DNA of 64,000 nucleotides from Clostridia bacterium (GCA_017456145.1 JAFTJZ010000091.1:18519-82518); one strand, 5' to 3'; numbered from the stretch's first letter, positions 1,357 through 50,710 are shown. Numbers and translations are program-made. Notes: generated from the sequence alone by a model not told the origin.

Positions 1357-2669
1357 CTCTCTCCTAAATTGTTTTTTAGTTTTAGTTGGCTTGTTTTAAG
1401 CATTCTAAGGGTTAAATCGACTCCCGTTCCATTGAAAAATTTTAGTTTTTTATGTAATTCTTCAATGGTATCCTTGAGTTCTGCTTCTGTTTCAAAAACA
1501 AAGTGAGCAAGTGCAACGACCTGTGAAAAAGAGCCAGTATCCTTTATTTGAGACCCCTCACCGTGAATAAGCGGTAGCGTAACTATATTTGTCATCTGCC
1601 GCGCTTCTTCAATCCCCTGCACCTTTTGAATTGTACCTGCACCACAGTAAAATGGATACACAGCATAAAATCGCTTTTTAGGAACAGTGTCAGGAATCAG
1701 CGAAGTAAAGCCATTTGTTTTACTCGTACCTGTTAGTGCGTAATATATATCTGCCGCTACTTGATTGATGCCATGTTTATAATCTACAAAGTAGATTGAT
1801 GCTGAACCTCCATATCGGAAACCGACTTCATTGAAATAGAAACTATCTCCATGGTGGAAAACTTCAATCCAGAATGAACCTTCCTTGATTCCGATCGACT
1901 GAATCATTCTTTCAATGCGTTCTTCATACTGCGCTCGGAAAGACTCCGATAGGTCGCTTTCGCAAATAAACAAACCGCCAACGTAGCTTCCTTGTTTCTC
2001 ATAACGAACAGGATACTTATCTTCTAGACCAGAGAATAAAAGCTTGCCTTCACTAACAGTATAGAAAACAACCACTCCATCATTAGGAACAAACTTTTCA
2101 ATAATAACACTACCTGTCGGTGACTCTTTAGCTGCTACGGCATAACCTTTCTTCAATTCATCAATGTTATGGCAGACAGAAAAACCGCTGCTCCCACAAC
2201 CATCTGTTGGTTTGGTGATGACGGGATATTCATTTTCCGGAACAGCATTTTCGATTCCCTTATCAATCATATAACGAGGAACAACTGGCAAATCATGTTG
2301 AATACACAACTCTTTAAAATTGCTCTTGTTCTGCAAATATTCCCACTGGTCATGTGTACAATAGCAGGGTAAGCCGAGTTCATTAATATACTGGCAGGCT
2401 GCAGATATGACTGCCTCGCTCCCCCCCATGTACACACCATCAATTTCGGCATCTTTAATTAACTTCTTCATTGCATCTTGATCAGTTGAGTTAACGCTAT
2501 ATTTTTCATCAGCGATCTCAAAAATACCAGCTGTCTGATCATTACCAGTTGCAATCAAAGTAATATCATTCTCGTCAGCAAAATCCTTTATTGCATTTTT
2601 CCAAAGGCTACCTCCAAGAATTAACAAACGCTTCCCACTTAATTCAGGATATTTCATCTTATACCTCAC
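1353..2669 (-). CDS. ATP-grasp domain protein
   Basis: YPVITKPTDGCGSSG, IIEKFV, FNEVGFRYGG; AT-rich coding sequence. Confidence 0.85.
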   Translation of the reverse strand: MRYKMKYPELSGKRLLILGGSLWKNAIKDFADENDITLIATGNDQTAGIFEIADEKYSVNSTDQDAMKKLIKDAEIDGVYMGGSEAVISAACQYINELGLPCYCTHDQWEYLQNKSNFKELCIQHDLPVVPRYMIDKGIENAVPENEYPVITKPTDGCGSSGFSVCHNIDELKKGYAVAAKESPTGSVIIEKFVPNDGVVVFYTVSEGKLLFSGLEDKYPVRYEKQGSYVGGLFICESDLSESFRAQYEERIERMIQSIGIKEGSFWIEVFHHGDSFYFNEVGFRYGGSASIYFVDYKHGINQVAADIYYALTGTSKTNGFTSLIPDTVPKKRFYAVYPFYCGAGTIQKVQGIEEARQMTNIVTLPLIHGEGSQIKDTGSFSQVVALAHFVFETEAELKDTIEELHKKLKFFNGTGVDLTLRMLKTSQLKLKNNLGER

Positions 2670-18775: not shown

Positions 18776-18787
18776 ATATAAGTATAT

Positions 18788-19040
18788 CAGCGACGATGGG
18801 AAAGAGTAACCGTCATATTCCCCGACAGAAAGCAGCCGGTTGATGAGAGGCGCAGGGTGCGAGGGCGGCGAATACCTCCCGGAGCTTTGTCCCGAAACGG
18901 TTCTCCGCGTGTAGGCGACAACGGCAGCCGCCCGTTACCACGCGGTAGGGTCATGCACCCATAAAGGTCGCAGTCGCGAGGCTGTGGCGAAAAAAGGTGG
19001 TAACACGGGTCTCCCGTCCTTTTCGGACAGGGGATTTTTA
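18788..19040 (+). ncRNA. T-box riboswitch (Tyr specifier UAC)
   Basis: Stem I AG-box/GNUG elements, GAA-TAC specifier at 18870-18875, T-box AAGGTGGTAACACG at 18994-19007, then a terminator; precedes tyrS. Confidence 0.9.
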
Positions 19041-38500: not shown

Positions 38501-38669
38501 GCGAGGAGGGAAAATTCTTGAAAGAATTTTCCCTCCCCGCGCCCCTCCTTTCAAGAACTTGAACAAAAAAGGATAGGATGTCATGGTAACGAATACATCC
38601 TATTCCTTTTTCCAAAAGTTTTTTGAAGGGGGTGCGGGGGAAACTTTTGTACACAAAAGTTTCCCCCGC
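38501..38669. repeat. REPIN-like doublet, copy H (no insert)
   Basis: Two terminal hairpins, TTCAAGAACTT/AAGTTTTTTGAA arms, inner ATAGGATG..CATCCTAT dyad. Confidence 0.9.
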
Positions 38670-43150: not shown

Positions 43151-43414
43151 GCGGGGGGAACTTTTTTGGAAAAAAGTTCCCCCCGCACCCCCTTCAAAAA
43201 ACTTGTAAAATAAATGGATAGGATGCTTTCGTTACAATGACATCCTATCCATTTTTTGTTCAAGTTCTTGAAGGGAGGGGTACGGGGAGGGGAACGATGT
43301 TTGTCGGTCGTGATGTTTTGCATAGCAAAACGGCACGATGACGGCGTTCAGCCGTCAAGGCAAACTCGAAGATCGCTTGCGATCATCTTCTTATCAAGAA
43401 TTTTCCCTCCCCGC
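43151..43414. repeat. REPIN-like doublet, copy I (inverted homolog of H) with a 92-nt insert at 43296-43387
   Basis: Its reverse complement aligns with 38501-38669 apart from the insert. Confidence 0.9.
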
Positions 43415-50459: not shown

Positions 50460-50710
50460 TCAGGGCTCCGCCCTGAAACCCGCCAAAGAACCTTTTTGCA
50501 AAAAGGTTCTTTGGAAACTCTAAAAACCTTTCAAGAAAGGAGCTTTGTGATTTTTATTAAAGTTTTTGAGGGATCAAAGGGAACGATGTTTGGCGTTTTC
50601 GGACTTGTCCGAAACGGCGGTGTCGAGCCGCCGAGACAAACTCTGTGGTCATTGGCGACCGTCTTTTTCTTCAAAAAGTTCCCTTTGTGGGGTTCGGGGC
50701 AACGCCCCGA
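50460..50710. repeat. REP/REPIN-like doublet, copy J, with a 79-nt insert at 50585-50663
   Basis: Left half nearly identical to copy A; removing the insert restores CAAAGGGAACTTTTT-CTTC-AAAAAGTTCCCTTTG. Confidence 0.9.

Follow-up and report, generated by a model that had tools for sequence, protein, structure and literature searches.

Two inserts of 92 and 79 nt (I and J) interrupt hairpin repeats in the genome of an uncultured gut Clostridia bacterium, and the evidence below supports the conclusion that they are discrete non-coding structured units that entered hairpin repeats already present. They belong to a multi-copy family that has a covarying fold, occupies precise sites with empty counterparts, prefers one position within the hairpin, keeps a constant orientation and does not encode protein. 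We consider, with a probability of about one half, that this element is a non-autonomous mobile DNA module of the REP/BIME kind that is defined by its fold and sits inside other hairpin repeats. The source genome (G000) consists of 117 contigs totaling 2.92 Mb, with 95% completeness and 7.5% contamination, and the window, which means the whole 64,000-nucleotide stretch of DNA that was analyzed, corresponds to C79:18519-82518.

According to the original prediction, a hairpin arm is interrupted after GGAAC and before the T-run by both inserts, and the sequence is as claimed (Table 1). Their shared layout, GAT-GTTTG-P2-P3-CAAAC-TC-linker-P4-RTC, with P3 being GACGGC..GCCGTC in I and GGCGGT..GCCGCC in J, was likewise borne out on reading the sequence, as was the CTTG loop in each, which insert I has in P4 and insert J in P2. 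In insert I, the linker GAAG and the tail CATC extend the P4 hairpin to the 3' end of the element, and the T-rich run of the host comes next. Copy H, described earlier as an empty homolog of I, is an uninterrupted paralogue of its host hairpin; it aligns with the region left of I at 85% identity, with the alignment stopping at the insertion point, and a junction-spanning alignment was also obtained.

Table 1 Coordinates of the inserts, their host hairpins and selected related loci (window positions unless a locus is named)
Feature	Position	Strand	Basis or remark
Insert I, 92 nt, complete, long-P2 subfamily	43296..43387	+	Covariance model match C79:61814-61905, 89.2 bits
Insert I, three-way junction	43299..43365	+	Minimum-energy folds and covariation
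Insert I, P1	43299-43305 with 43359-43365	+	
Insert I, P2	43307-43321 with 43325-43339	+	
Insert I, P3	43340-43345 with 43351-43356	+	Loop GTTCA
Insert I, P4 hairpin GATCG CTTG CGATC	43371..43384	+	Fold; terminator-like consensus match
Insert J, 79 nt, complete, short-P2 subfamily	50585..50663	+	Covariance model match C79:69103-69181, 87 bits
Insert J, P1	50588-50592 with 50637-50641	+	
Insert J, P2	50597-50603 with 50608-50614	+	
Insert J, P3	50615-50621 with 50627-50633	+	
Insert J, P4	50647-50660	+	
Host hairpin of I, left arm ggggaggggaac	43284..43295	+	Stops at insertion point
Host hairpin of I, apex ttcttatcaagaa and right arm ttttccctcccc	43388..43412	+	
Host hairpin of J, left arm caaagggaac	50575..50584	+	
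Host hairpin of J, apex tttttcttcaaaaa and right arm gttccctttg	50664..50687	+	
Copy H, ggggagggaaaattctttcaagaattttccctcc	38505..38537	-	Uninterrupted paralogue of host hairpin of I
tRNA-Tyr array, 4 units	L020 130-830 (G012:C19)		Two alternating unit types
tRNA-Tyr array, 2 units	L022 1500-1830 (G009:C53)	-	
75-nt version of the element	L132-L135, L141, L142 (G011, G012); L147 (G003)		Left neighbors differ

Filled and empty sites in hairpin repeats

The element lies inside a REP-like hairpin at 19 loci of the source genome, in the arrangement arm-AAC/ACC-T-run-loop-A-run-GTT-arm'. When the flanks were joined in silico, a junction-centered hairpin was the minimum-energy fold in 15 of the 19 and other folds were obtained in four, in agreement with the claim that removal of the insert restores the hairpin. 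An uninterrupted paralogue spanning the junction with 84-97% identity was found for 15 of the 19 filled sites. In addition, we inspected the orthologous sites in a sister species (G001), whose flanking genes are 79-82% identical to those of the source genome. At the site of J, the sister species has an empty, intact hairpin (CCAAGGAAAC^TTTTTTTCAAAAAAGTTTCCTTGG), from which exactly 79 nt are absent, and the site of I is also empty and intact (GGGGGGAAAAC^TTCTTTTAAGAAGTTTTCCC), up to the end of the G001 contig. The host hairpin is thus common to both species at both window loci and the insert alone differs, and these orthologous empty sites show a recent entry of the element. Both filled/empty pairs also agree with the earlier statement that there is no target duplication beyond one ambiguous C. 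At two further G000/G001 loci, the entire repeat or spacer differs, and the remaining orthologous comparisons were uninformative as well, the repeat being missing altogether from G001, the spacers non-homologous or the contig broken off at the element. The filled alleles are present in the contigs of two DNA runs, with no read or joint skipping the inserts, and no head-to-tail (circle-junction-like) sequence was found in the genome.

The insertion point falls on the boundary between the stem and the T-run in 19/19 copies in G000, in the 3/3 read in G001 and in 11/11 hairpin-borne copies of a metagenome assembly, the latter all having the same orientation as well. The occupied arm is the one after an AAGTTYTTG-like box, which is readable in 17 of the 19 G000 copies. 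The triplet before the insertion point is AAC in about 8 of these 19 copies, ACC in 4, GAC in 2 and others in 5. As the genome contains ~295-350 such host hairpins, the 19 filled ones correspond to an occupancy of roughly 5%. At C24:907, a copy separates the two arms of a GTAG-tagged REP, 17 sister copies of which have loops of 3-4 nt; therefore, the target seems to be the apex side of hairpins in general. The idea that the P3 loop serves as a target guide was rejected, with the base after the loop GTT complementing the base before AAC in just 4 of 14 copies.

The inserts fall into two subfamilies, one with a short P2 and a GGCGGT P3, and the other with a CGCG P2 and a GACGGC P3. By reading, both subfamilies were found in hosts with G-rich arms and in hosts with CCAAG arms, which argues for several independent entries. 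Insert I and the copies on C107 and at C110:15962 are 78-81% identical over ~280 nt, flanks included.

Fold, covariation and distribution of the element

The element, which is ~60-100 nt long and has no coding capacity, folds into a three-way junction (P1 GTTTG/CAAAC, P2 and P3) followed by a terminal hairpin, P4. Folded as RNA, insert I adopts this shared structure at -40.1 kcal/mol (z -4.70; 0/200 shuffles as good), and the minimum-energy fold of insert J is a different structure (z -1.56; 13/200 shuffles). With DNA parameters, the shared fold was obtained for both inserts (I, z -5.80, 0/200; J, z -3.42, 2/200). The reverse strands of both fold nearly equally well, with RNA as well as DNA parameters.

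Compensatory changes were found in 14 of the 21 predicted pairs among 25 copies from the source genome. The large alignment, in which 73 matches were reduced to 50 distinct sequences from several species, confirmed the compensatory changes in the stems that had been proposed from the two inserts: paired cells amounted to 95.8%, double-sided changes occurred in 20 of the 21 pairs and none of 500 shuffles reached any of the five measures, and controls with slid positions were 38.5-52% paired. This alignment was fitted to the model, which favors the structure; nonetheless, the margin is very large. The further proposal that G-T wobbles favor the plus strand held only in part. Cells of the G.U type outnumber those of the A.C type (39 versus 14), but the preference is weak because 21 of the 39 stem from one pair atop P3, and this pair may simply belong to the conserved 7-nt loop YGTTNAG.

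Comparison of the copies delimited the parts of the fold. P1 mostly has 5-7 bp but is longer in some copies (such as CGAGTTTG/CAAACTCG), P2 varies from 0 to ~30 nt, P3 has 6-7 bp and the conserved loop YGTTNAG, and the junctions measure just 0-2 nt. P4 depends on the subfamily, being GRTCG-CTTG-CGAYC in the hairpin-borne copies. The linker pairs with the 3' tail in other copies (GAAG/CTTC, GGTG/CATC and GATG/CATT, by reading), so that the P4 stem runs on into the linker and the tail, and the foot of P4 is accordingly where the unit ends. Both P2 and P4 repeatedly carry G(CTTG)C and GNRA loops. The 5' ends of the hairpin-borne copies are GATG, GACG, GAGG or CGAG. Pairing of the 5' GATG with the 3' CATC was rejected, because the tail instead covaries with the linker and so prolongs P4; a small ORF from the ATG of GATG was also rejected, since copies starting with GACG, GAGG or CGAG lack this ATG and the stop shows no conservation.

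Genome-wide, a strict scan for the end motifs located the element in 15 places, with 11 distinct sequences. We then used nhmmer and a covariance model built from the 25 own-genome copies, and the covariance model gave 37 matches at E <= 0.001. These correspond to ~32 loci, because five match pairs lie on redundant contigs with identical flanks. The pairs concerned (C101/C110, C8/C96, C95/C110, C10/C86 and C45/C88) show no difference across the element and 45 nt to either side; such redundant contigs fit the contamination of 7.5%, and copy counts therefore need correction. The covariance model had matches in 14 of 41 related genomes: the element occurs in 10/12 other genomes of the genus and in 3/12 from other genera of the family, all of them uncultured gut Clostridia, and in 0/16 genomes from other families of the order. 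The covariance search that had been proposed as a check thus revealed a multi-copy family.

Among species-representative genomes, a degenerate P3/P1' pattern found 37 loci, all in MAGs of uncultured gut Clostridia; an exact 25-nt pattern taken from P1'/P4 had no hit there. A metagenome scan with a P4-end pattern returned 40 loci, with full elements at 11 and P4 alone at one; of the remainder, the 8 read were unrelated coding-like DNA and the other 20 had no covariance model match. The locus with P4 alone (L165 ~1418-1436, minus strand) is a host hairpin with just GATG..GGTAAG and P4, the three-way junction being absent, and is either an internal-deletion derivative or a minimal form retaining both ends. 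Only G000, G001 and one metagenome assembly yielded the hairpin-borne form (P4 GRTCGCTTGCGAYC), which looks like a branch that was amplified recently.

BLAST searches of insert I against phage and plasmid collections yielded no match. No Rfam match that would remove the novelty of the family emerged either: with Rfam 15, whose families include hammerhead, twister, pistol, hatchet, HEARO, RtT and tRNA, nothing in the window matched either insert at the gathering threshold, nothing credible overlapped either insert at E <= 10, and the related loci matched true tRNAs only. The only Rfam match in the window above the gathering score was a T-box leader at 18784-19024 (+), with 95.4 bits.

Candidate enzymes, tRNA-linked copies and competing explanations

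In the reading that we favor, a mobile DNA module, the identity of the module would be set by its fold and not by its sequence, that is, by the three-way junction, the P3 loop YGTTNAG and then P4 as the 3' end. The module would enter hairpin repeats on the apex side, at the point, usually AAC^TT, where the G/C-rich stem gives way to the T-run, in one orientation and without target duplication, which would make it a second-order parasite of REP-like repeats, nearest to REP/BIME/REPIN. It would have moved in trans, and both the moving and the target forms would be folded single strands, with hairpins extruded during replication or transcription. The reaction would probably involve a structure-specific nuclease-ligase, and a RAYT-like Y1 HUH protein is the only candidate visible in the genome. 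Action at the DNA level is favored by the antisense orientation of 9 of the 10 copies between co-directional genes, by the equally good fold with DNA parameters and by the failure to find a reverse transcriptase. The spread could partly be due to gene conversion between paralogous hairpin repeats, or to composite hitch-hiking.

The genome contains two RAYT-like Y1 ORFs, on C66 and C44, of which the former, with 46.9 bits on NF047646, stays under the cut-off of 80; its GTAG-tagged hairpins number at least 28. RAYT-like genes occur in 9/13 genomes bearing the element and in 9/27 without it, the genomes being related and incomplete. None was found in G001, which is 90% complete and bears clear hairpin-borne copies, and a copy lies within 1.5 kb at just 1 of 6 RAYT-like loci. 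The link between the element and the RAYT-like genes is thus weak. The RAYT-like frame on C66 (L073 1327-1995) has no ATG near its start and contains, in frame, two inverted GTAG-tagged hairpins ~180 nt apart (GTAGGGGTCGGCGCC... and ...GGCGCCGACCCCTAC), which look like REPs inserted inside the gene.

The original prediction of a hyper-parasitic miniature element stands as far as a nested multi-copy unit with empty sister-species sites is concerned; its IS200/IS605-like mechanism found no support. The single, apparently intact IS200 copy (L072 1300-2070, G000:C6), which encodes a TnpA of 153 aa (160.6 bits on NF033573), is flanked on both sides by CCACCCG-type hairpins (CCACCCGC..GCGGGTGG) unlike P2-P4 of the element. 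The ends of the resident IS200 are unrelated to those of the element, the triplet before the insertion point is variable, and no strand bias is apparent, the GC skew on the element strand being positive for 8 and negative for 11 of the 19 copies in this fragmented assembly. With respect to neighboring genes, 9 of the 19 are antisense to both, 1 is sense, 5 lie between convergent genes and 4 between divergent genes. Searches detected no IS110-type DEDD transposase in the genome, no TnpB in 5 genomes and no reverse transcriptase (RVT_1) in the 95%-complete genome, the control genomes for the last being positive; a Y2/IS91 search was uninformative, as no control genome gave a match. Longer versions encoding TnpA/TnpB or a reverse transcriptase had also been envisaged, and the metagenome scan found no longer, gene-carrying version.

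The core of the element also occurs in settings that the original prediction had not noticed: downstream of tRNA genes, in tandem arrays and as one component of larger mosaic repeats. Where a called tRNA accompanies a copy, the two are co-oriented at 8 of 9 loci. Directly behind tRNA-Tyr, two species have tandem arrays with a period of ~175-177 nt (Table 1), in which each unit contains a terminator copy, the three-way junction, a hairpin, a decayed tRNA T-arm copy and a trailer, and the two alternating unit types differ by compensatory changes. Partial tRNA 3' duplications are also present behind tRNA-Ser and tRNA-Arg. Upstream of a methyltransferase-like gene, there are two tandem units that repeat every 116 nt (L002 2967-3173, minus, G000:C36). 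The last part of an array at a contig start (L005 1-310, G000:C6) resembles the variable arm, T-arm and acceptor 3' end of a tRNA, together with a terminator, and ARAGORN called no tRNA there. In another genome (L028 1475-1625, G015:C70), a tRNA-like gene is apparently split at the anticodon-loop position by the element and ~40 nt; its parts are the D-arm and 5' anticodon stem, then the T-arm, acceptor and CCA, again with no ARAGORN tRNA.

Mosaic repeats of several hairpins that contain the core were found in G000, G003, G011, G012 and another MAG species. In G011 and G012, which are two species, 8 loci share an identical 75-nt version of the element, and G003 has it with one mismatch. Some other copies adjoin, just behind, a GTAG-tagged half-hairpin. 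An intergenic mosaic in the source genome (L001 7300-8080, G000:C110) contains a ~95-nt structured module twice and two divergent copies of the element, as well as TATAAGGGGG..CCCCTTATA and GTTCACTTCTTTG..CAAAGAAGTGAAC hairpins and a promoter-like TTAGAA-17-CTTAAT box in three repeats. In one MAG species, the core lies on many contigs (L074-L109) within a composite repeat of >250 nt, several copies of which are at contig ends; therefore, nested repeats break metagenome assemblies.

These placements bear on a different explanation, possible if doubtful, namely that the element is a functional plus-strand RNA module, such as a small RNA, a processing or stability element or a terminator cassette, whose spread was passive, through gene conversion or through microhomology that led to template switching at the apices of hairpins, without dedicated transposition. 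The co-orientation of tRNA-adjacent copies would fit such an RNA, as would the recurrence in P2 and P4 of the thermostable RNA-type loops G(CUUG)C and GNRA while the stems covary, the identity of the 75-nt version across 8 loci of two species and the conserved P3 loop, which suggests a specific partner. P4 and the following T-run agree with the consensus of an intrinsic terminator (a G+C-rich hairpin, then a T-run), making putative terminators of 43371-43384 in the window and of L001 7808-7832, and the T-run of the copy in the GTAG-tagged REP cannot derive from the host loop. Microhomology is possible at both junctions, given the right-hand T-run and the left-hand C. Against an RNA function, no promoter-like site is present upstream of the window copy, the wobble asymmetry comes mostly from one pair and there is no Rfam relative; moreover, 9 of the 10 copies between co-directional genes are antisense, so that host transcripts would carry the opposite strand. 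The occurrence of both subfamilies in unrelated host families is also unexplained by simple paralogue conversion. The RNA module and the mobile module are not mutually exclusive.

Still more tentatively, the element may represent a new class of structure-guided 'hairpin invader', and the smallest self-contained mobile unit known in bacteria. An enzyme so far unrecognized as a transposase would cut the element at the feet of its fold and insert it at the single-stranded apex of extruded hairpins of any kind, whether in REP-like repeats, GTAG-tagged REPs or tRNA-derived inverted repeats. The plus strand may also act as a small RNA that brings its own terminator and is linked to the tRNA operons of uncultured gut Oscillospirales.

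It is quite unlikely that the family consists of miniature integrative units that recombine at tRNA 3' ends via a tyrosine recombinase, with the hairpin-borne copies as a side branch and the apices as secondary sites. The tRNA-Tyr arrays, each unit of which repeats the T-arm, trailer and terminator beside the element, would be accounted for, together with the partial 3' duplications behind tRNA-Ser and tRNA-Arg and the split tRNA-like gene. However, no integrase was evident beside the arrays read, the units are too small for any coding, covariation of a single-strand fold is unexpected for double-stranded att sites, and the hairpin targets share one ambiguous base with the element and no more. 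It is highly improbable that the element is an RNA that excises itself from host transcripts by self-cleavage or self-splicing, a reading raised by the original prediction and suggested by the compact conserved fold with its ends close together inside a structured host RNA element, since it has no match among the self-cleaving, ribozyme and intron families of Rfam 15 up to E <= 10, is with 60-97 nt far below the size of group I or II introns and lies mostly antisense to the flanking genes, and a reverse transcriptase for retromobility was not found.

Relation to known systems

For a mobile DNA module nested in hairpin repeats, the nearest relatives would be the REPs, and REPIN/RAYT biology is already known. 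Like REP/BIME/REPIN-RAYT systems, the element is short, non-coding, extragenic, multi-copy and defined by a single-strand fold, and it forms mosaic clusters with other hairpins. It differs from them in being a three-way junction with a hairpin and not a simple palindrome, in its 5' end, which is GATG and not a GTAG (or CGTC) tag, and in having no inverted-doublet (REPIN) form. The RAYT-like genes here, in contrast to those of REP-RAYT systems, are not flanked by the element (1/6 loci), and none was found in G001.

The tyrT-linked 178-bp repeats of E. coli, with the RtT RNA (Rfam RF00391), offer an analogy, and only an analogy, to the ~175-nt tandem repeats behind tRNA-Tyr, each with a piece of a tRNA 3' end. 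The element has no sequence or structure match to RtT, comes from a different phylum and has a core that is also dispersed and nested in hairpins. Both rttR and REPIN/RAYT biology are treated in 10.1101/2024.07.17.603846.

With IS200/IS605 elements and PATEs, the element shares the lack of target duplication and of terminal inverted repeats, a 3' hairpin and a single-strand fold. On the other hand, its ends are unlike those of the resident IS200, its triplet is variable, it shows, unlike IS608-type elements, no apparent replication-strand bias when judged against GC skew, and TnpB was not found. The T-shaped terminal hairpins of parvoviruses (AAV ITR), a replication origin of eukaryotic viruses, are nicked by the HUH protein Rep. 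There, a three-way-junction single-strand fold serves as an HUH platform, which is an analogy only, without homology to the element. Integron attC sites have R'' RYYYAAC ... R' GTTRRRY in that order, with the crossover in G^TT; an attC identity was rejected, as the element has GTTTG first and CAAAC last on either strand. We also rejected a classical MITE, as the ends GATG../..CATC have no inverted repeats beyond 4 nt and the filled/empty pairs show no duplication, and a group II intron or retroelement, as the element has only 60-97 nt and the genome has no RVT_1 match.

Insertion into REP hairpins in itself has precedents. IS1397, ISKpn1 and members of the IS110 family (IS621) are autonomous elements of 1-1.5 kb that insert site-specifically and in one orientation into REP hairpins, and IS110-family elements make little or no target duplication. 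The element is likewise site-specific and inserted in one orientation, but has 60-97 nt and no gene. Insertion sequences that target REP hairpins are covered by Tobes and Pareja 2006, as cited in PMC3733652. That article (Di Nocera et al. 2013, PMC3733652) describes GTAG/CGTC REPs inserted within palindromic targets; the nested REPs presented there are ordinary tagged REPs or REP dimers, and in one species the genome that carries them also has hundreds of empty targets. These REPs resemble the element in being small palindromic repeats inside other palindromes, whereas the element is an untagged three-way junction at the stem/T-run boundary of one arm. In the literature, nothing was found on repetitive extragenic palindromic sequences together with Oscillospiraceae, and no description was found of a three-way-junction unit nested in REP arms.

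REP-type repeats are abundant in bacteria, but little is understood of how they spread. In the present case, they were entered by a second small element, precisely and, by the sister-species comparison, recently, with clean filled and empty sites and strong covariation. As a practical matter, such nested repeats break metagenome assemblies, with several copies lying at contig ends. The case offers a natural system whose moving unit and target are both short hairpins accessible to synthesis and assay. If the mover is a RAYT-like or another HUH protein, its substrate would be quite unlike the known GTAG hairpins; if the unit acts as RNA, it would be an undescribed, widespread non-coding RNA of an uncultured gut lineage.
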